Source: a virus (Duplodnaviria; Heunggongvirae; Uroviricota; Caudoviricetes). From it: DNA of 10,175 bases. How positions within the stretch are numbered: the first letter of the stretch is position 1; every line of letters begins with the position of its first letter. The translations under genes and the position numbers were made by a program. Of the stretch, positions 1-10,175 are shown piece after piece. The stretch lies in the IMG/VR virus record IMGVR_UViG_2703718840_000003, positions 1-10,175 of that record, one strand, 5' to 3'. The notes beneath the pieces were generated by a model, which was not told where the DNA came from, did not search any database, and saw nothing but the letters and a program-made list of their open reading frames with translations.

Positions 1-2
1 AG

Positions 3-95
3 GCGGAGTTATCCCGCGTGGAGATAGTCGAGCTGCTCAGTCAGGAGTCGGAAAAATTTCACAATATCGGATTGTCTCGCGGGGAGGTGCTTTGA
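3..95 (+). CDS. C-terminal end of an upstream early-operon ORF (partial, starts before the window)
   Basis: Frame 3 is open from the window edge and ends at TGA 93-95 (...[30 protein letters not shown]), overlapping the next ATG at 95 in a TGATG arrangement. Identity not determinable from 31 residues. Confidence 0.4.
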
Positions 96-397
96 TGTCC
101 TGTTCTCGTTCAGTTGTATTACTGAATAACGCCTTAAAAATCACCGTTATGAAAAATGGCGATTTATCTCTTATTCAACTTGGTCTTGATAAAGAAAAAC
201 GCGAAATAACTGAGTCTGTTATCGCGATTTATCAGAACGAATTAAATCTCCTGTCTGATGTGGTCAATTTACTTGTTAAACGCGCTGTATTTCACAAGCA
301 AATCTCCTCCGTGGATGAACTGACGAAATTAACGACAGAAATTGCCAGCTATTGCGCTGATGAATTTAAAAAACTTAACGACAAAAGGAGCTGGTAA
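95..397 (+). CDS. Hypothetical small protein of the P2-type early/replication operon (orf81-like)
   Basis: ATG at 95 preceded by GGAGG at 82-86 (7-nt spacer); the six-frame track starts this ORF at TTG 92, one codon earlier. Stop TAA 395-397 overlaps the next ATG (TAATG). Position and coupling match the orf80-83 block upstream of gene A in P2; function unknown. Confidence 0.65.
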   Translation: MSCSRSVVLLNNALKITVMKNGDLSLIQLGLDKEKREITESVIAIYQNELNLLSDVVNLLVKRAVFHKQISSVDELTKLTTEIASYCADEFKKLNDKRSW

Positions 398-621
398 TGC
401 CGGACAACGTAGATTTTATTCAGGAACAACAGGCTGAATTACTGGAGCGTCAGATTAACGCGGCAAGGGTAAAACATTGCGGTGCTTCTGCGCTGGTTTG
501 CGAAGAGTGTGACGCGCCAATACCTGCTGCCCGTCGTGCGGCTTATCCGTCAGCCACGCGTTGTGTTTCCTGCCAGTCAGTCTTTGAAGCAAAAAACAAA
601 CATTACCGGAGAACGGCATGA
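397..621 (+). CDS. TraR/DksA-family C4 zinc-finger protein (P2 orf82-like)
   Basis: 74 aa with CxxC-(17)-CxxC (CEECDAPIPAARRAAYPSATRCVSCQ) near the C-terminus, typical of TraR/DksA zinc fingers. ATG 397 overlaps the upstream stop; stop TGA 619-621 overlaps the next ATG at 618 (ATGA). Confidence 0.8.
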   Translation: MPDNVDFIQEQQAELLERQINAARVKHCGASALVCEECDAPIPAARRAAYPSATRCVSCQSVFEAKNKHYRRTA

Positions 622-893
622 GTATTCGTATTGAAATTGGCGAACGTTATGTCGTTACCAGTGACAGCTTTCAGTTTATTCTCCACGAGAAAAAGAGAGC
701 GGAAAGCGGTAAAAACGCCGGTCAGGAATGGCTGGCGGTGGTTGGTTATTATCCGAAATTAAGCCAGCTCGTTTCCGGCCTGATGCATCACGATATTCTG
801 ACCGGAAGCGCAAAGTCTTTTGCTGATTTAAACGCGCAGGTTGAGCAACTCAGCAGGCGTTGTTCAGAGGCTTTTGGCTCATATGGCCGTTAA
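618..893 (+). CDS. Hypothetical protein (P2 orf83-like), last small ORF before gene A
   Basis: 91-aa ORF translationally coupled to the preceding gene; its 3' end overlaps the gpA start at 883 by 11 nt. No recognisable catalytic motif. Confidence 0.65.
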   Translation: MSIRIEIGERYVVTSDSFQFILHEKKRAESGKNAGQEWLAVVGYYPKLSQLVSGLMHHDILTGSAKSFADLNAQVEQLSRRCSEAFGSYGR

Positions 894-3156
894 AGCCTCC
901 GGGCGTTTTGTCCCTCCGTCAGCATTTGCTGCAGGCACCGGTAAGGCGTTTACCGGTGCTTATGCATGGAACGCGCCACGCGAGGCCGTCGGGCGCGAAA
1001 GATCCCTTACACGTGACGAGATGCGTCAGGTGCAAGGTGTTTTATCCACGATTAACCGCCTGCCTTACTTTTTGCGCTCGCTGTTTACTTCACGCTATGA
1101 CTACATCCGGCGCAATAAAAGCCCGGTGCACGGGTTTTATTTCCTCACATCCACTTTTCAGCGTCGTTTATGGCCGCGCATTGAGCGTGTGAATCAGCGC
1201 CATGAAATGAACACCGACGCGTCGTTACTGTTTCTGGCAGAGCGTGACCACTATGCTCGCCTGCCGGGAATGAATGACAAGGAGCTGAAAAAGTTTGCTG
1301 CCCGTATCTCATCGCAGCTTTTCATGATGTATGAGGAACTCAGCGATGCCTGGGTGGATGCGCATGGCGAAAAAGAATCGCTGTTTACGGATGAGGCGCA
1401 GGCTCACCTCTATGGTCATGTTGCTGGCGCTGCACGTGCTTTCAATATTTCCCCGCTCTACTGGAAAAAATACCGTAAAGGGCAGATGACCACGAGGCAG
1501 GCATATTCTGCCATTGCCCGTCTGTTTAACGATGAGTGGTGGACTCATCAGCTTAAAGGCCAGCGTATGCGCTGGCATGAAGCGTTACTGATAGCTGTCG
1601 GGGAGGTCAATAAAGACCGTTCTCCTTATGCCAGTAAACACGCCATTCGTGATGTGCGTGCGCGCCGCCAGGCAAATCTGGAATTTCTTAAATCGTGTGA
1701 CCTTGAAAACAGGGAAACCGGCGAGCGCATCGACCTTATCAGTAAGGTGATGGGCAGTATTTCTAATCCTGAAATTCGCCGGATGGAGCTGATGAACACC
1801 ATTGCCGGTATTGAGCGTTACGCCGCCGCAGAGGGTGATGTGGGGATGTTTATCACGCTGACCGCGCCGTCAAAGTATCACCCGACTCGTCAGGTCAGAA
1901 AAGGCGAAAGTAAAACCGTTCAGCTTAATCACGGCTGGAACGATGAGGCATTTAATCCAAAGGATGCGCAGCGTTATCTCTGCCGCATCTGGAGCCTGAT
2001 GCGCACGGCATTCAAGGATAATGATTTACAGGTCTACGGTTTGCGTGTCGTCGAGCCACACCACGACGGAACGCCGCACTGGCATATGATGCTTTTTTGT
2101 AATCCACGCCAGCGTAACCAGATTATCGAAATCATGCGTCGCTATGCGCTCAAAGAGGATGGTGACGAAAGAGGAGCCGCGCGAAACCGTTTTCAGGCAA
2201 AGCACCTTAACCGGGGCGGTGCTGCGGGATATATCGCGAAATACATTTCAAAAAATATCGACGGCTATGCACTGGATGGTCAGCTCGATAACGATACCGG
2301 TAAGCCGCTTAAAGATACTGCCGCGGCTGTTACCGCATGGGCGTCAACGTGGCGCATCCCGCAATTTAAAACGGTTGGACTGCCGACAATGGGGGCTTAC
2401 CGTGAACTACGCAAATTGCCTCGCGGCGTCAGTATTGCTGATGAGTTTGACGAACGCGTCGAGGCTGCTCGCGCTGCCGCAGACAGTGGTGATTTTGCGT
2501 TGTATATCAGCGCGCAGGGTGGGGCAAATGTCCCGCGCGATTGTCAGACTGTCAGGGTTGCCCGTAGCCCGTCGGATGACGTTAACGAGTACGAGGAAGA
2601 AGTCGGGAGAGTGGTCGGCATTTACGCGCCGCATCTCGGCGCGCGTCATATTCATATCACCAGAACGACGGACTGGCGCATTGTGCCGAAAGTTCCGGTC
2701 GTGGAGCCTTTGACTTTAAAAAGCGGCATCGCCGCGCCTCGGAGTCCTGTCAATAACTGTGGAAAGCTCACCGGTGGTGATACTTCGTTACCGGCTCCCA
2801 CGCCTTCTGAGCACGCCGCAGCAGTGCTTAATCTGGTTGATGACGGTGTTATCGAATGGAATGACCCGGAGGTCGTGAGGGCGCTCAGAAGCGCATTAAA
2901 ACACGGCCTGAGAAGACCAAACCGTCAGCAAAGAAACGGAAGCCCGTTAAAACTGCATGAAATAGCGCCATCGGCCAGACTTACCCGGTCGGAACGAATG
3001 CAAATTACCCGTATCCGCGTTGACCTTGCTCAGAACGGTATCAGGCCGCAGCGATGGGAGCTTGAGGCGCTGGCGCGTGGGGCAACCGTAAATTATGACG
3101 GGAAAAAATTCACGTATCCGATTGCTGAAGAGTGGTCGGGATTTTCCTCAAACTAA
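883..3156 (+). CDS. A: Rolling-circle replication initiation endonuclease gpA (HUH superfamily)
   Basis: 757-aa ORF from ATG 883 (the track's 841 start is an upstream in-frame TTG). Contains HUH motif HWH (nt 2077-2085, VEPHHDGTPHWHMMLF) and paired tyrosines YIAKY at residues 450/454 (nt 2230-2244), matching the recalled P2 gpA active-site tyrosines. N-terminus MAVKASGRFVPPSAF matches recalled P2 A. Stop TAA 3154-3156. Confidence 0.93.
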   Translation: MAVKASGRFVPPSAFAAGTGKAFTGAYAWNAPREAVGRERSLTRDEMRQVQGVLSTINRLPYFLRSLFTSRYDYIRRNKSPVHGFYFLTSTFQRRLWPRIERVNQRHEMNTDASLLFLAERDHYARLPGMNDKELKKFAARISSQLFMMYEELSDAWVDAHGEKESLFTDEAQAHLYGHVAGAARAFNISPLYWKKYRKGQMTTRQAYSAIARLFNDEWWTHQLKGQRMRWHEALLIAVGEVNKDRSPYASKHAIRDVRARRQANLEFLKSCDLENRETGERIDLISKVMGSISNPEIRRMELMNTIAGIERYAAAEGDVGMFITLTAPSKYHPTRQVRKGESKTVQLNHGWNDEAFNPKDAQRYLCRIWSLMRTAFKDNDLQVYGLRVVEPHHDGTPHWHMMLFCNPRQRNQIIEIMRRYALKEDGDERGAARNRFQAKHLNRGGAAGYIAKYISKNIDGYALDGQLDNDTGKPLKDTAAAVTAWASTWRIPQFKTVGLPTMGAYRELRKLPRGVSIADEFDERVEAARAAADSGDFALYISAQGGANVPRDCQTVRVARSPSDDVNEYEEEVGRVVGIYAPHLGARHIHITRTTDWRIVPKVPVVEPLTLKSGIAAPRSPVNNCGKLTGGDTSLPAPTPSEHAAAVLNLVDDGVIEWNDPEVVRALRSALKHGLRRPNRQQRNGSPLKLHEIAPSARLTRSERMQITRIRVDLAQNGIRPQRWELEALARGATVNYDGKKFTYPIAEEWSGFSSN

Positions 3157-3328
3157 TAATGATGTTTGACAAAGAGATGTTGATGAGACTAAAAATTTTA
3201 TTTGTCTGTATAACCATTCGGTTAGAGTACAATAGTTCCGAGTGATAGGAATACAAATAATGACTAAGTTTTCAACATGCGATTATTATGGGTTGAATTA
3301 AAGGTAAATAACTATGTTAAATAATATA

Positions 3329-3361
3329 GGGCAAGAGGGTGTTCTTGCCCTTTGTTTATTT
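3329..3361. terminator. Intrinsic terminator hairpin, probably bidirectional
   Basis: Perfect 8-bp stem GGGCAAGA (3329-3336) / TCTTGCCC (3343-3350) with 6-nt loop, followed on plus by TTTGTTTATTT and on minus by TATATTATTT. Lies immediately 3' of the minus-strand SIR2 gene stop (3360-3362) and about 170 nt 3' of gene A. Confidence 0.6.
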
Positions 3362-5954
3362 AAGCGGCGATTTCAATGTTGCTTTTATATTTTAAGAGGG
3401 CGTTTTTGGGAACTGCTGGCCAGGCTGAGTATCTATAATAGTTCATATAATCTTTCTCTATCAGTGTTTTTAGCTGTTTGTTAGCTTGAACTTCATCGCC
3501 AAGTAAAAAGAATGCACACATGGCCGTAGCCCCTTTTGAATTGTTATGTGCTAAAACTGAATTTATCTCATTCTTTTTAATGTCTTGCCCTTCTTTTTTC
3601 TTGGCAACTTCTCTATTGATTATTAAAACATCTTTTTCCCTGTAATCTTTAATTTTTTCAAGGTTTTCATTAGCGATTTTAATTGTTTCTTTATAGTTTC
3701 CTGCAAGAAGATTGGTATAAGATTTTCCTAAGATATAATCACTAAACCCGTAACCTTTTTCATAAGCTTCATCAAGAAGAACTATCGCTTTATCATAATC
3801 GCCGTTTAAAGATGCAATATCAGATTTTAATTTTAAAATGGTGATTTCTGATTTGTTTCTTGGCAGGCTATCAATAAACTCCTCTGCCAATTTGATGTTG
3901 TTTTTATCAATTAGTAATATGTCTACAATACTGTTTGTATGATTATTTTTCCACGGGCAGTTCATGGCTTCTTTGACTAATTCAATACCAGCTTTGATGT
4001 CCCTGTTGCAGCCTATCTCATATCGAGCTTTAAATATAATGAAAGGAGCAATTCTTGCAATGTCGCTCTCTTCTTCATATTTATCAATAAAGCCTTTCAT
4101 CAGGTTGGGAGTGTTTTCATCGAAGTCTGTTTCAAATAAAGATAGATGCAGTTGTGTTAAATATTTTAATATGTTTCTTTTTTTATTTTTTGATGATGTT
4201 TTGTAAGCGTTGGATAATGTATCTATGCATAATAATGTATCTTCTTTCTTTTGCAATGCGCAGGTGAAATCAGTATATAACGACAAATATGTATCGTGAG
4301 TAGGGTTGACCTCTTTTATTTTGTCAAGCAGTTCTTGTATTAATTTATTACAATCTTTCTTATCATGGCTTGATTGATGTTTTGTCTTTATTGCGTCATA
4401 TTTTATTCTCCATGCAATATTATCCAGATCACTGCTTTGGAGTAAGCTTTTATCAATTAAATCATGTATTTCATCAAAGGTTATTAATTCTTCATCATTA
4501 TTTTCTAGATGTAGAATAGCAATTCTGCTTAAATGATTCTTAAGATTTATGCTATATGGGAATTTTTCAAGCAATCCCTTAAGGTAATGTATTTTTGCCT
4601 TTAGATCTGTGAATATGTTTGCCCTTGAAAGGGCGTAATTTATATTAAATTCATCAAGAGCTATAAGATTATCACTAATTTCTAATGCTGACTTTGTGTC
4701 TTTTTGTTCTTCTTTTATTTCAATTAGCCTACGCAGATATTTAGACTTTATATTGTCACTATCAGCGTTATTGATTAATTCATTCAGTTTTGACTCTGCG
4801 TTTAAATAATTTTTATTTCTAATGAGGTTGTCAATGTATAACAAATTCTTAAAATCTTCTTCGGGGATCTTTTGATCGTCTAAATCACTTTGGGATAGCT
4901 CGTTTATTAATGACGATATGTCATGTGTTAGAGTGTGTTTTTTTAATTTTGAGAGGTCAGATTTGATAATGCCATTTTTAGATAAGTTGTACTCATCTGT
5001 TATAAAGTTTTGGATCATCATCTCTCTTTTTGTGGATTTTTGATTCCCTCCAAAAGAGAGTGCGCAGCCTAATTCTAGGGCTAGTTCTGCCATCAATTCA
5101 TCAAAACCTTCTATTTCTACCCAATAAACTTTATCTTGACCTAGAAGCCTAATAAGTTCTGGTGGGATGGAGTCATTTTTTCTAACGCACCAGTATACTC
5201 CATTTCTTAGGTAATCGTCCTGTTTTAATAAATGTTTTAAAACATCCATGATAGAGCTGTCATTGCCAGCATAACCAACAAAAATAATCCCGTATTCTTT
5301 AGTGAATTCAGTTAGTTTTTCACGAGTGTTACCTTCTAATGACTCGGTTTCTTTTAAAGAGCTTTTTATGCTATCAAATAAATAATCACCATGTAATTTT
5401 ATTATTTTTGGCCTTGAAGAAGTAATTGAGACGCCTTTAATTGATGAATCATGTGCACATAATAATGGTCTGTCAGAAGAAAATTGATAAAATGCTTCAT
5501 TTATTAAATCGTCAAAATTTGTTGTGAAGACAGTATCAAAAAACTTTGATTCAAATAGTTCAACGAGATAAGCATATCCAATTGAAGGTAATTTTTTGTC
5601 TACTTGAAGCTCAACAAATCTTCTGCGTTGAGATGGAAGATCAAATTTCTTTTCAAAAAGAGATGAGTATTCATTGTTTGGGTCGTACCAGACTGGATGG
5701 TTTTTGGATAGCCATTTTTTAGCTTCTTCGGCATCGACATATTCTTGATTAGATAGTCTTGTGTATATCTCTTCTCTCCATTTCGCTACTAACTCTTGAC
5801 CAGTTTTTATTCCAGATGTAACGGATGCGCCAGCACCAAGAAAAAGTGAATAGTTAGGTGATGTACCTGATTTGATTTTTATATAATCAGCTAAATCTTT
5901 AACGGTTCTTTTTTTGGCAACCAGTTGTTCCTTGGTAGTATCACGATCAGACAT
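3360..5954 (-). CDS. SIR2-like (sirtuin-fold NADase) domain protein with a large C-terminal alpha-helical/TPR-like domain; candidate single-gene anti-phage defence protein
   Basis: 864-aa minus-strand ORF, ATG at 5954-5952, stop TAA at 3362-3360. N-terminal about 300 aa carry SIR2 hallmarks: glycine-rich loop SLFLGAGASVTSG (res 37-48, nt 5811-5846), TTNFDDL with Asn146 (nt 5517-5519) and KLHGD with His188 (nt 5391-5393), an Asn-His spacing of 42. The remaining roughly 560 aa are K/N/I/E/D-rich, helix-like, with TPR-like stretches (e.g. GDYDKAIVLLDEAYEKGYGFSDYILGKSY). Strongly AT-rich codon usage unlike the flanks. Confidence 0.85.
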   Translation of the reverse strand: MSDRDTTKEQLVAKKRTVKDLADYIKIKSGTSPNYSLFLGAGASVTSGIKTGQELVAKWREEIYTRLSNQEYVDAEEAKKWLSKNHPVWYDPNNEYSSLFEKKFDLPSQRRRFVELQVDKKLPSIGYAYLVELFESKFFDTVFTTNFDDLINEAFYQFSSDRPLLCAHDSSIKGVSITSSRPKIIKLHGDYLFDSIKSSLKETESLEGNTREKLTEFTKEYGIIFVGYAGNDSSIMDVLKHLLKQDDYLRNGVYWCVRKNDSIPPELIRLLGQDKVYWVEIEGFDELMAELALELGCALSFGGNQKSTKREMMIQNFITDEYNLSKNGIIKSDLSKLKKHTLTHDISSLINELSQSDLDDQKIPEEDFKNLLYIDNLIRNKNYLNAESKLNELINNADSDNIKSKYLRRLIEIKEEQKDTKSALEISDNLIALDEFNINYALSRANIFTDLKAKIHYLKGLLEKFPYSINLKNHLSRIAILHLENNDEELITFDEIHDLIDKSLLQSSDLDNIAWRIKYDAIKTKHQSSHDKKDCNKLIQELLDKIKEVNPTHDTYLSLYTDFTCALQKKEDTLLCIDTLSNAYKTSSKNKKRNILKYLTQLHLSLFETDFDENTPNLMKGFIDKYEEESDIARIAPFIIFKARYEIGCNRDIKAGIELVKEAMNCPWKNNHTNSIVDILLIDKNNIKLAEEFIDSLPRNKSEITILKLKSDIASLNGDYDKAIVLLDEAYEKGYGFSDYILGKSYTNLLAGNYKETIKIANENLEKIKDYREKDVLIINREVAKKKEGQDIKKNEINSVLAHNNSKGATAMCAFFLLGDEVQANKQLKTLIEKDYMNYYRYSAWPAVPKNALLKYKSNIEIAA

Positions 5955-5957
5955 TTT

Positions 5958-5963
5958 CCCTCC
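5958..5963 (-). promoter_or_regulatory. Shine-Dalgarno sequence of the SIR2-domain gene
   Basis: Minus strand reads TATGGAGGGAAA-ATG; GGAGGG (plus-strand ccctcc at 5958-5963) sits 3-4 nt upstream of the ATG. Confidence 0.55.
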
Positions 5964-6266
5964 ATAAATTATGTGTGAGAAGTGAGAATAATCCTAGGTG
6001 CGGTTATTTTTACATGAAATTCAATGGGTTTTCGTTTTTCTTACATGCGTTTTGTGACTGAGATCAAGCTATGAGGGAGGAATGTTCTTTTATTGTTCGC
6101 TAGAGGCTAATTGGCTAATAAGCTTTTACTAATCGTTTATGATGTACCATAGCGTTGAATGATTTTGCATGCATTTGTCAGATGTTTACTGATGTTGTTA
6201 TGTCAGAGCTGGTGCGCTTTAGGTTATTTCATGCAACTGCATTAAAACCACCACATGAAGCGGGCG

Positions 6267-6285
6267 GGCGAGGCGGGGAAAGCAC
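6267..6285. other. Putative cos cohesive-end sequence of the P2/186 family
   Basis: GGCGAGGCGGGGAAAGCAC at 6267-6285 matches, from memory, the 19-nt cohesive end shared by P2, 186 and P4. It lies between the accessory island and portal gene Q, where cos sits in an integrated P2 genome. Not verified by search. Confidence 0.55.
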
Positions 6286-6427
6286 TGCGCGCTGGCGGTG
6301 GTGCTGATTTTATTTTTTCAGCGTCTGAGCGCGTCGTGATGGCGTTTAGATTGTGCGCCGGGGTGTTGGTGTGTCTGCGGGATGTTTTGTGCGGTGGTGA
6401 GCGTGTGAGGGCGTGATGACGGGGTGT

Positions 6428-6449
6428 AAAAAAGCCGCCCGCAGGCGGC
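6428..6449 (-). terminator. Intrinsic terminator downstream of portal gene Q (end of the leftward P-Q transcript)
   Basis: Stem GCCGCC (6434-6439) / GGCGGC (6444-6449) with 4-nt loop, preceded on plus by A6 (6428-6433), giving hairpin plus U6 on the minus-strand transcript 5 nt after the Q stop (6455-6457). Confidence 0.55.
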
Positions 6450-6454
6450 GATGT

Positions 6455-7489
6455 TCAGCCGTTGTCAGTGTCCAGTGAGTAGTTTTTAAAGCGGATGACC
6501 TCCTGACCGAGCCAGCCGTTTATCTCGCGGATCCTGTCCTGTAACGGGATAAGCTCATTGCGGACAAAGACCTTTGCCACTTTCTCAATATCACCCAGCG
6601 ACCCGACGTTCTCCGGCTTGCCGCCCATCAACTGAAAGGGGATGCGGTGCGCGTCCAGCAGGTCTGCGGCACTGGCTTTTTTGATATTAAAAAAATCGTC
6701 CTTCGTCGCCACTTCACTGAGCGGGATAATTTTAATGCCGTCGGCTTTCCCTTGTGGGGCATAGAGAAACAGATTTTTAAAGTTGTTGCGGCCTTTCGAC
6801 TTCACCATGTTTTCGCGAAGCATTTCGATATCGTTGCGATCCTGCACGGCATCGGTGACGTACATGATGTATCCGGCATGTGCGCCGTTTTCGTAATACT
6901 TGCGGCGGAACAGCGTGGCCGATTCATTCAGCCAGGCAGAGTTAAGGGCGCTGAGATATTCCGGCAGGCCGTACAGCTCCTGATTAATATCCGGCTCCAG
7001 CAGGTGAAACACGGAGCCGGGTGCGAAGGCTGTCGGCTCGTTGAAGGACGGCACCCACCAGTAAACATCCTCTTCCACGCCACGGCGGGTATATTTTGCC
7101 GGTGAGGTTTCCAGTCTGATGACCTTACCGGTGGTGCTGTAACGCTTTTCCAGAAACGCATTACCGAACACCAGAAAATCCAGCACAAAGCGGCTGAAAT
7201 CCTGCTGGGAAAGCCACGGATGCGGGATAAATGTCGAGGCCAGAATATTGCGTTTGACGTAAATCGGGGAGCTGTGATGCACGGCAGCACGCAGGCTTTT
7301 TGCCAGACCGGTAAAGCTGACCGGTGGCTCATACCATCTGCCGTTACTGATGCACTCAACGTAATCCAGAATGTCACGGCGGTCGAGTACCGGCACCGGC
7401 TCGCCAAAGGTGAATGCTTCCATTTTCGGGGCGCTGGCGGTCATTGTTTTTGCCGCAGGTCGCGGTGTTTTCCCTTTTTTCTTGCTCAT
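6455..7489 (-). CDS. Q: Portal (capsid vertex) protein gpQ
   Basis: 344-aa minus-strand ORF, the length recalled for P2 gpQ; placed between cos and the terminase gene as in P2. Start ATG 7489-7487 overlaps the stop of the upstream terminase ORF (TGATG on the minus strand). Confidence 0.88.
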   Translation of the reverse strand: MSKKKGKTPRPAAKTMTASAPKMEAFTFGEPVPVLDRRDILDYVECISNGRWYEPPVSFTGLAKSLRAAVHHSSPIYVKRNILASTFIPHPWLSQQDFSRFVLDFLVFGNAFLEKRYSTTGKVIRLETSPAKYTRRGVEEDVYWWVPSFNEPTAFAPGSVFHLLEPDINQELYGLPEYLSALNSAWLNESATLFRRKYYENGAHAGYIMYVTDAVQDRNDIEMLRENMVKSKGRNNFKNLFLYAPQGKADGIKIIPLSEVATKDDFFNIKKASAADLLDAHRIPFQLMGGKPENVGSLGDIEKVAKVFVRNELIPLQDRIREINGWLGQEVIRFKNYSLDTDNG

Positions 7490-8100
7490 CAGTAAAACTC
7501 CAGAATGGTGGATGTCAGCGGGGTGCTGATACCGGCGGTGAGTGGCTCATTTAACAGGGCGTGCATGGTCGCCCAGGCGAGGTCGGCGTGGCTGGCTTCC
7601 TCGCTGCGGCTGGCCTCATAGGTGGCACTGCGTCCGCTGCTGGTCATGGTCTTGCGGATAGCCATAAACGAGCTGGTGATGTCGGTGGCGCTGACGTCAT
7701 ATTCCAGACAGCCACGGCGGATAACGTCTTTTGCCTTGAGCACCATTGCGGTTTTCATTTCCGGCGTGTAGCGGATATCGCGCGCGGCGGGATAGAACGA
7801 GCGCACGAGCTGGAACACGCCGACACCGAGGCCGGTGGCATCAATCCCGATGTATTCAACGTTATATTTTTCGGTGAGTTTGCGGATGGATTCCGCCTGG
7901 GTGGCAAAGTCCATGCCTTTCCACTGGTGACGCTCAAGTATTCTGAATTTGCCACCGGCCACCACCGGCGGTGCCAGCACCACGCATCCGGCGCTGTCGC
8001 CACGGTGTGACGGGTCGTAACCAATCCATACCGGGCGGGAGCCGAACGGATTGGCGGCAAACGGCGCATAGTCTTCCCATTCTTCCAGCGTGTCGACCAT
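7489..8100 (-). pseudogene. P: Terminase large (ATPase) subunit gpP, C-terminal nuclease-domain fragment only
   Basis: 203-aa minus ORF with an RNase-H-like terminase nuclease signature (VWIGYDPSHRGDSAGCVVLA, YIGIDATGLG, HADLAWATMHAL). P2 gpP is recalled as about 590 aa with an N-terminal ATPase domain; here the frame upstream of Met 8100 runs straight into antisense of the capsid gene, so no Walker A/B region is present. Confidence 0.7.
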
Positions 8101-8106
8101 GCAGCG

Positions 8107-9141
8107 TTGCAGCTCCTCGAACTGAACGGCATCGACGCCGGTGATGTGTCGAAAAAATTCACCGTTGAACCGTCGGTCACCCAGACCCTGATGAACACCA
8201 TGCAGGAGTCCTCTGATTTTCTGACCCGCATCAACATTGTGCCGGTCAGCGAAATGAAAGGGGAAAAAATTGGTATTGGTGTCACCGGCTCCATCGCCAG
8301 CACCACCGACACCGCCGGTGGCACCGAGCGTCAGCCGAAGGACTTCTCGAAGCTGGCGTCAAACAAGTACGAATGCGACCAGATTAACTTCGATTTTTAT
8401 ATCCGCTACAAAACGCTTGACCTGTGGGCGCGTTATCAGGATTTCCAGCTCCGTATCCGTAACGCCATTATCAAACGCCAGTCCCTTGATTTCATCATGG
8501 CCGGTTTTAACGGCGTGAAGCGTGCCGAAACCTCTGACCGCAGCAGCAATCCGATGCTGCAGGATGTGGCGGTCGGCTGGCTGCAGAAATACCGCAATGA
8601 AGCCCCGGCGCGCGTGATGAGCAAGGTTACTGACGAGGAAGGTCACACCACCTCTGAGGTCATCCGCGTGGGTAAGGGCGGTGATTATGCCAGCCTCGAT
8701 GCACTGGTGATGGATGCGACCAACAACCTGATTGAGCCGTGGTATCAGGAAGACCCTGACCTTGTGGTGATTGTGGGGCGTCAGCTACTGGCGGACAAGT
8801 ATTTCCCCATCGTCAACAGGGAGCAGGACAACAGCGAAATGCTGGCCGCTGACGTCATCATCAGCCAGAAACGCATCGGTAACCTGCCGGCGGTACGCGT
8901 CCCGTACTTCCCGGCGGATGCGATGCTCATCACGAAGCTGGAAAACCTGTCCATCTACTACATGGATGACAGCCATCGCCGCGTGATTGAGGAAAACCCG
9001 AAACTCGACCGCGTGGAGAACTACGAGTCAATGAACATTGATTACGTGGTGGAAGACTACGCCGCCGGTTGTCTGGTGGAAAAAATTAAGGTCGGTGATT
9101 TCTCCACACCGGCTAAAGCGACCGCAGAGCCGGGAGCGTAA
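8107..9141 (+). CDS. N: Major capsid protein gpN, apparently 5'-truncated at a junction with the P fragment
   Basis: 344 aa from TTG 8107 to stop TAA 9139-9141; recognised as P2-type major capsid protein (recalled full length 357 aa). No upstream ATG/GTG and no SD; the in-frame sequence upstream is antisense of P. The native start and roughly the first 13-17 codons appear missing. Confidence 0.8.
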   Translation: MQLLELNGIDAGDVSKKFTVEPSVTQTLMNTMQESSDFLTRINIVPVSEMKGEKIGIGVTGSIASTTDTAGGTERQPKDFSKLASNKYECDQINFDFYIRYKTLDLWARYQDFQLRIRNAIIKRQSLDFIMAGFNGVKRAETSDRSSNPMLQDVAVGWLQKYRNEAPARVMSKVTDEEGHTTSEVIRVGKGGDYASLDALVMDATNNLIEPWYQEDPDLVVIVGRQLLADKYFPIVNREQDNSEMLAADVIISQKRIGNLPAVRVPYFPADAMLITKLENLSIYYMDDSHRRVIEENPKLDRVENYESMNIDYVVEDYAAGCLVEKIKVGDFSTPAKATAEPGA

Positions 9142-9144
9142 CCG

Positions 9145-9888
9145 ATGACGAGTCCCGCACAGCGCCACATGATGCGGGTCTCGGCAGCGATGACCGCGCA
9201 GCGGGAAGCCTCCCCGCTGCGACATGCAACTGTCTATGAGCAGATGCTGGTTAAGCTGGCCGCAGACCAGCGCACACTGAAAGCGATTTATTCAAAAGAG
9301 CTGAAGGCCGCAAAAAAACGCGAACTGCTGCCGTTCTGGTTGCCGTGGGTGAACGGCGTGCTGGAGCAGGGCAAAGGTGCACAGGATGACATTCTGATGA
9401 CGGTCATGCTGTGGCGTCTGGATACCGGCGATATTGCCGGTGCGCTGGAGATTGCCCGTTATGCCCTGAAGTACGGTCTGACCATGCCGGGTAAACACCG
9501 CCGTACCCCGCCGTACATGTTCACCGAGGAGGTGGCGCTCGCGGCCATGCGCGCTCACGCTGCCGGTGAGTCTGTGGATACCCGCCTGCTGACGGAGACC
9601 CTTGAACTGACCGCCACGGCTGACATGCCTGATGAAGTGCGCGCAAAGCTGCACAAAATTACCGGTCTGTTTCTGCGTGACGGTGGTGATGCCGCCGGTG
9701 CGCTGGCGCACCTGCAACGTGCGACACAGCTCGACTGTCAGGCAGGCGTCAAAAAAGAGATTGAACGACTGGAGCGGGAGCTGAAACCGAAGCCGGAGCC
9801 GCAGCCAAAAGCGGCCACCCGCGCCCCGCATAAGACCCGGAGCGTGACACCGGCAAAACGTGGACGCCCGAAAAAGAAAGCCAGTTAA
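9145..9888 (+). CDS. M: Terminase small (endonuclease) subunit gpM
   Basis: 247-aa ORF, ATG 9145 three nt after the N stop, stop TAA 9886-9888. Length and position match P2 gpM; basic C-terminal tail (KRGRPKKKAS). Confidence 0.88.
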   Translation: MTSPAQRHMMRVSAAMTAQREASPLRHATVYEQMLVKLAADQRTLKAIYSKELKAAKKRELLPFWLPWVNGVLEQGKGAQDDILMTVMLWRLDTGDIAGALEIARYALKYGLTMPGKHRRTPPYMFTEEVALAAMRAHAAGESVDTRLLTETLELTATADMPDEVRAKLHKITGLFLRDGGDAAGALAHLQRATQLDCQAGVKKEIERLERELKPKPEPQPKAATRAPHKTRSVTPAKRGRPKKKAS

Positions 9889-9987
9889 CAACCGAATGCG
9901 CCCCGCGCCAGGGCGGCACGCCGGTCAGTGAGGGTGAATCACCTGACACTGCACCGGCGTCCACCGCCCGACTTTTCAGAGGTAGTC

Positions 9988-10175
9988 ATGATGACGCTGA
10001 TTATTCCGCGAAAGGAGGCTCCCGTGTCCGGTGAGGGTACGGTGGTCATCCCGCAACCGGCAGGCGACGAGCCGGTGATTAAAAACACGTTCTTTTTTCC
10101 CGATATCGACCCGAAGCGCGTCCGGGAACGTATGCGCCTTGAGCAGACCGTCGCCCCCGCCCGTCTGCGTGAGGC
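9988..10175 (+). CDS. L: Head completion/stabilisation protein gpL, N-terminal part (runs off the window)
   Basis: ATG 9988 (MMTLIIPRKEAPVSGEGTVVIPQPAGDEPVIKNTFFFPDIDPKRVRERMRLEQT...) preceded by AGAGGT at 9977-9982; open to the window end. Position after M matches P2 gene order O-N-M-L. Confidence 0.8.
   Translation, partial: MMTLIIPRKEAPVSGEGTVVIPQPAGDEPVIKNTFFFPDIDPKRVRERMRLEQTVAPARLRE

Follow-up and report, generated by a model that had tools for sequence, protein, structure and literature searches.

A probable microhomology-mediated deletion joining the terminase gene P to the capsid gene N in a P2-like prophage of Escherichia coli

The DNA considered here, referred to throughout as the window, is a stretch of 10,175 bases that constitutes the entire contig LOOF01000015.1 of the E. 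coli draft assembly GCA_001576305.1 (locus L024). Two DUF5405 genes and a TraR/DksA zinc-finger gene lie ahead of replication gene A, which is intact on the plus strand at 883–3156 and encodes 757 aa with a match to Pfam Phage_GPA. An intact gene for an 864-aa SIR2-domain protein (3360–5954, minus strand; Pfam SIR2_2) occupies the hot spot between A and cos/Q. The cos cohesive end (GGCGAGGCGGGGAAAGCAC) is retained at 6267–6285 and agrees in all 19 nt with that of phage P2, whose linear record carries the annotation at either end (nt 1–19 and 33575–33593). A terminator scan located a tQ-like intrinsic terminator of the P-Q operon, likewise retained, at 6434–6449 on the minus strand, and tQ of P2 is annotated at the equivalent position (160–181). 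The portal gene Q (6455–7489, minus strand; Pfam Phage_portal) is intact, its 344 aa matching the length of Q in P2. Next comes a remnant of the terminase gene P, also on the minus strand, in which DNA for codons 381–590 spans 7489–8122 and the open reading frame covers 7489–8100 (203 aa from Met388). The deletion junction, placed at 8118–8122 by overlapping BLAST blocks and by a three-way alignment, consists of a CGAAC microhomology, and beyond it the 5′-truncated capsid gene N is read on the plus strand at 8107–9141 (344 aa from a TTG codon), with N-derived DNA from 8118/8123 supplying residues 18–357. The small terminase gene M (9145–9888, plus strand, 247 aa; Pfam Phage_term_smal) is intact with its promoter pO gone, and the 5′ part of the head-completion gene L (9988–10175, plus strand) is cut by the contig end, L being complete in a second assembly that carries the same junction (locus L023).

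The window aligns with P2 (NC_001895) in BLAST blocks of 96.8–98.5% identity that keep the P2 order, its Pfam families include GPA, portal, Terminase_6C, cap_P2 and term_smal, and identity and synteny with P2 run across A, the hot spot, cos, Q, P, N, M and L, as expected of a member of Peduovirus. Judged by this identity, synteny and cos, the window is a piece of a P2-like (Peduovirus) prophage, and a defective member of that group: a functional phage would carry the full essential late-gene set, of which O is absent here and P and N are truncated. An earlier reading made from the letters and open reading frames only (the sequence-only reading) had assigned the DNA to the P2 family with the gene order Q, P, N, M, and both Pfam and colinearity with P2 bear this out. 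With P2 and other P2-like prophages the window shares the gene order and, at 97.5–98.5% nucleotide identity, A, cos, Q, the 3′ third of P, N from codon 18, M and L; it differs from P2 in carrying the SIR2 gene where P2 has old and tin, and in the genes and promoters that are missing at the junction. The replication and defence genes had also been read as intact, which holds, as both are full length and identical proteins occur elsewhere: the SIR2 protein in many intact P2-like prophages, and the exact gpA protein only in the two assemblies that bear the junction.

The junction was mapped by BLAST and by a three-way alignment against P2 and an intact relative, the prophage of E. coli TK3887. 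Two colinear blocks result, window 6267–8122 corresponding to P2 1–1854 and window 8118–10175 to P2 4130–6187, which share 5 nt, with 2,280 bp gone and zero inserted bases. Nucleotide 1854 of P2, in gene P, is thereby joined to nt 4130, in gene N, on the same strand. The sequence CGAAC occurs at P2 1850–1854 and again at 4130–4134, a single copy is kept in the window, and P2 nt 1855–4134 are absent from it. The flanks lie in the same orientation and are colinear in TK3887 as well, and in nine intact SIR2-carrying loci (L003–L009, L011 and L012). The locus therefore shows what a simple microhomology deletion should show, namely colinear flanks and a direct repeat of which one copy is kept, with no filler or mobile-element DNA, and the expected probability that a random join would have an ambiguity of at least 5 nt is ~0.005 (~0.5%). 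Junctions of eight other P2-like prophage deletions have overlaps of 0–7 nt, a like signature. In all of the 30 best-matching complete genomes listed, the right half of the window splits into two pieces spanning 6,056 bp versus 3,776 bp, and the query is covered to at least 80% at a single place in 1,465 records, which implies the intact layout. An adjacent deletion mediated by an insertion sequence or transposon would leave a mobile element or its end at the junction, whereas every base flanking 8118–8122 aligns to P2.

An alignment to P2 had been proposed in the sequence-only reading as the means of finding endpoints and any microhomology; it yields P2 1854|4130 and CGAAC, and reveals neither an uninterrupted P nor an O gene. 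The head-to-head arrangement of a truncated P and a 5′-truncated N described there agrees with the layout of the open reading frames, with Pfam and with BLAST against P2. The junction itself, which had been put at 8090–8115, exists, but the alignment places the DNA join slightly further right. The estimate that roughly 390 codons of P and about 2 kb were missing came close to the computed values of ~380 codons and 2,280 bp.

The lost content was computed by arithmetic on the P2 annotation. It comprises P codons 1–380, which encode the HTH and ATPase domains; the pP/pO region, with the P-operon start site (3016), the shared activator site (3057–3087) and the O-operon start site (3127), all in P2 coordinates; the whole of O (P2 3167–4021); and the first 50 nt of N, corresponding to codons 1–17. 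The earlier claim that the divergent late promoters, the entire O gene and the opening codons of N were missing is in accordance with the P2 annotation of the gap. What is kept, in addition to Q, cos and M, is the nuclease domain of P and the entire coding part for the mature capsid. While ~380 codons of P are deleted, 387 are untranslated, since the P frame is open 5′ of Met388 in the window but has no start codon there. The P remnant matches only Terminase_6C, the RNaseH-like nuclease domain (Pfam, E 4e-48, profile positions 1–154 of 155), whereas P of intact relatives contains Terminase_5 (HTH), Terminase_6N (ATPase) and Terminase_6C within 590 aa. The N remnant matches Phage_cap_P2 over profile positions 8–327 of 327 (Pfam, E 3e-147). 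In the intact system gpO removes a 31-residue N-terminal peptide from gpN (PMC7552001), and because the remnant misses only part of that peptide, the mature capsid is still fully encoded.

The reading frames that begin at 8100 on the minus strand and 8107 on the plus strand, the latter without a native start or ribosome-binding site, had been noted before and are confirmed. The first four codons of the N reading frame (TTG CAG CTC CTC) are antisense P that happens by chance to be in frame with N, no Shine–Dalgarno-like sequence was found upstream of TTG 8107, and no promoter-like site near the junction rose above chance; the N remnant has no native start, ribosome-binding site or promoter. In GenBank the fused reading frame was called as a 357-aa capsid protein from ATA 8068 (KXR96549.1), a length that coincidentally equals that of intact gpN, and RefSeq later trimmed it to 344 aa from TTG 8107 (WP_077875788.1). 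The truncation goes unmarked in both capsid annotations, and these records call no gene at the P remnant. The N locus is thus labelled as an ordinary ‘phage major capsid protein’, when in fact P and N are both pseudogene remnants.

The junction has very probably arisen by a spontaneous, microhomology-mediated deletion of 2,280 bp in an integrated P2-like (Peduovirus) E. coli prophage. A junction that keeps one copy of a short direct repeat and drops the interval exactly, without filler, is what RecA-independent illegitimate recombination or replication slippage leaves behind, and either process may have acted here between the CGAAC copies in P and N. Classical lacI-type deletions in E. coli occur between short direct repeats and are independent of RecA; the present deletion resembles them in the single 5-bp repeat copy, the exact interval lost and the absence of filler, with no difference in kind. 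The loss took away the terminase HTH and ATPase parts, the divergent, Ogr-activated pP/pO region, the scaffold and protease gene O and the start of N, and left cos, gene A for replication and the SIR2 gene of the hot spot in place. The deletion is probably recent, because it is seen in just two related assemblies and because the protein sequences of the P and N remnants show no difference from their counterparts in intact prophages. In other prophages P ends in exactly the sequence of the P remnant protein, and a Logan N fragment matches the final 316 residues of the N remnant without a difference. This Logan fragment was considered as independent support for the junction and rejected, as it derives from a split N gene (calls of 40 aa and 316 aa) in an otherwise intact prophage (L025).

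As to function, gpO is an essential scaffold and maturation protease, and gpP and gpM are required for packaging (PMC7552001). With the ATPase of gpP gone, no functional terminase would be expected, and from the P2 annotation and this literature neither a scaffold nor a maturation protease would be made. Q is the distal gene of the P operon in the P2 annotation and has lost its promoter pP, and M belongs to the O operon; according to the P2 operon notes, no late promoter serves Q, the N remnant, M, L, X, Y, K, lysA, lysB, R or S once pP/pO are lost. Expression of Q, N, M and the downstream genes of the O operon, including those for the holin Y and the endolysin K, would accordingly be abolished on the P2 model. 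The prophage is thus predicted to be unable to make heads or to package DNA, and host lysis by it is probably lost as well. A defect in terminase, scaffold and packaging had been foreseen by the sequence-only reading and is supported on the same P2-based grounds, but its extent was drawn too narrowly, given that the lysis genes, R and S also lose pO. Induction with mitomycin C had been suggested as a test for particle production; P2-type phages are not known to be SOS-inducible, and this would therefore be a poor test. For practical purposes the prophage should be scored as defective, producing no virions and playing no helper role for P4-type satellites, unless complemented.

The identical junction is located inside the 163.7-kb contig LOOG01000007.1 of assembly GCA_001575455.1 (L023), which is identical to the window over 1–9129. 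There Q, M, L, X, the lysis genes, R and S are all kept; the downstream genes L to R are of normal length, and S runs off the end of the stretch examined. The prophage sequence seen extends as far as S, with the tail genes beyond S, ogr, int and the att sites lying outside it. The junction rests on these two draft assemblies, which are possibly related isolates of one project, and searches of 5,426 complete E. coli genomes, the GTDB species representatives, IMG/VR and JGI metagenomes did not find it elsewhere. A literature search on the assembly accessions gave no result. The 67 GTDB matches to an 18-mer were in unrelated taxa, two matches in Enterobacteriaceae MAGs proving on checking to be due to chance, and one complete-genome match (H56) that seemed to run 40 nt past the junction was a gapped chance extension through shared AAATTCAC. 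The two assemblies differ at 10 clustered sites between 9130 and 9706, at the end of N and in M, and this cluster suggests either a recombination patch from a second P2-like copy in the genome or mixing with such a copy in the consensus. At these sites each haplotype combines variants that are found segregating in other P2-like prophages. Both contigs begin at the same base within the DUF2732 (orf80) gene, the window stops within L, and P2-like sequence reaches both window ends. Contigs typically break in this way where a repeat begins or ends, and the probable cause is a second P2-like prophage in these strains, which could complicate the assembly and could complement the defect in trans.

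Gene P is also found broken at similar places elsewhere. The exact 203-aa P remnant is present on 128 contigs in varied contexts, with the neighbouring gene being H (L013, L018), gpI (L017), FII (L020), FI (L016) or D (L019); in L015 the remnant adjoins an ogr remnant beside the host flank, and in L021 and L022 it is created by nonsense codons just before Met388. The search was for the 203-aa product and mainly recovers junctions ~30 nt or less upstream of Met388, on account of an in-frame GTG 10 codons upstream of it, and a few were recovered further upstream (P2 2003–2118), where an overlapping antisense fusion reading frame limits the gene call. Clustering near Met388 is to be expected, because the search selects junctions that yield 203 aa. 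Probes along P hit similar numbers of places in the 5,426 complete genomes (1,746 for P2 1700–1850, 1,753 for 1866–2016 and 1,728 for 2800–2950), so that no step in P copy number is seen in them at the breakpoint position, and 5′-truncated P accounts for only ~1% of copies. The apparent recurrence of a P breakpoint looks like ascertainment bias. Two pairs of these loci deserve separate mention. L013 and L018 have the same P|H junction, at ~9981 in each (P2 1852 joined to 13664), in the Asp codon of the H motif GNDPNF, and the H-derived DNA next to it shows an identity of only ~70% between the two loci; either one ancestral event was followed by tail-fibre exchange, or two events occurred at the same spot. 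L016 (P2 2117|18029) and L019 (2118|23191) have P endpoints 1 nt apart and different partners, FI and D respectively; they are related remnants that share a DEAD-helicase cargo and an integration site, and their near-coincident endpoints may be a coincidence or the result of nested deletions.

The microhomology deletion has to be weighed against several other accounts of the junction. The two copies suggested by the contig ends and the SNP cluster bear on whether it exists at all, since an assembly or library artefact could have joined P of one P2-like prophage to N of the same or a second copy in a chimera. Such an origin might be suspected of a short draft contig with both ends in P2-like sequence, with 10 SNPs clustered against its sister assembly and with a junction seen nowhere beyond the two. 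The same junction is, however, embedded in the 163.7-kb contig of a second, independently assembled genome, the microhomology at the join is of the kind found at real deletions and at those in the other prophages, and a 5-nt overlap is far below any assembler's overlap or k-mer. The artefact, which the sequence-only reading had allowed for, is for these reasons very unlikely, and we conclude that the junction is a real, lineage-specific deletion. A real junction might still have been made by a site-directed break that recurs near P codons 380–388, whether at a quasi-site of a recombinase or through self-targeting by a nuclease or CRISPR followed by one-sided resection. Five independent junctions at P2 1852–1863 with different partners (N, H, H-like, I and ogr) would agree with this, as would the two at P2 2117/2118 and the sharing of one P|H junction by L013 and L018 in diverged H genes. 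Yet the endpoints differ in nucleotide position, and N at the window junction has no recombinase-site features beyond CGAAC, which makes a directed break of this kind highly improbable. A quasi-site for a Din-type invertase was among the candidates examined; L018 has pix/cix-like sites (TTCTCCCAAACCAAGGT...) ~100 nt from its own junction, and these have no counterpart at the window junction.

The remaining accounts concern what has become of the prophage. It could be a cos-bearing, replication-competent, helper-dependent derivative that is packaged in trans by a co-resident intact P2-like prophage and spreads the SIR2 gene. In keeping with this, cos, A, Q and M are intact, the contig ends and SNP cluster point to a second P2-like copy in the same genome, and the loss is only 2.28 kb (~7%) relative to the 33.6-kb P2 reference. 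Against it, there is no sign of spread, because the junction occurs in only two related assemblies; genes of satellite type are absent from the window, the helper is itself hypothetical, and this must be considered extremely unlikely. A P4-like satellite or PICI was likewise rejected, as the structural genes are kept and genes of the sid, psu and delta type are absent from the Pfam matches. Taken more broadly, it is unlikely either that the prophage is a domesticated or helper-dependent element (harmless, with cos, replication and SIR2 kept, and packageable in trans) or that domesticating deletions preferentially break P in the linker between its ATPase and nuclease domains. Were domestication the right account, loss of the pP/pO hub would be what makes the prophage harmless to its host, with no heads formed and no lysis. 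On the favoured reading, a spontaneous microhomology deletion, the event is ordinary prophage decay, and what is particular here is only its small size and its position, by which the head and packaging promoter hub was removed in one step.

Prophages that decay through deletions yet retain their cargo are well documented (for example Bobay et al., 2014; for the defective prophage pool of O157, PMC2669165). Other P2-like remnants (L010, L013, L015–L020) resemble the window in the loss of morphogenesis genes in one step, in short microhomology and in keeping the early region and its cargo. They differ in scale and target, the deletion in the window measuring 2.3 kb versus 11–22 kb in those remnants, and it strikes the head and packaging promoter hub while leaving the late genes L to S (as seen in L023) apparently intact. 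The window thus adds one more P2-like prophage that is decaying with its defence hot-spot cargo intact; this fits known prophage domestication and opens no new question.

The hot spot for defence genes in P2 lies between A and cos/Q (bioRxiv 10.1101/2021.01.21.427644). Residues ~30–380 of the SIR2 protein in the window match Pfam SIR2_2 and the PADLOC SIR2 models associated with pAgo systems, and its C-terminal ~480 residues have no family match in Pfam or PADLOC. Between prophages that diverge by 2–3% in the flanking phage genes, the hot-spot cassette of ~3.1 kb varies by only 1–7 nt. An identical SIR2 protein is encoded in the far more degraded remnant L010 (region 6000–8466), which has two deletions, P2 2194|2534 and 2652|22909. 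L010 retains ogr, a piece of D, P in two fragments, Q, SIR2, A and a single DUF5405 gene, with the host gene yegR directly adjoining, and its cos-Q segment has 2 mismatches in 1,248 nt with that of the window. At L013–L022 the hot spot, from gpA to Q, has different cargo at nearly every locus, in agreement with the published description; the cargoes include DUF7380, a HATPase with a DNA methylase, SIR2 with DUF87, DEAD helicases, Fic, GmrSD, and the retron Ec48 with reverse transcriptases.
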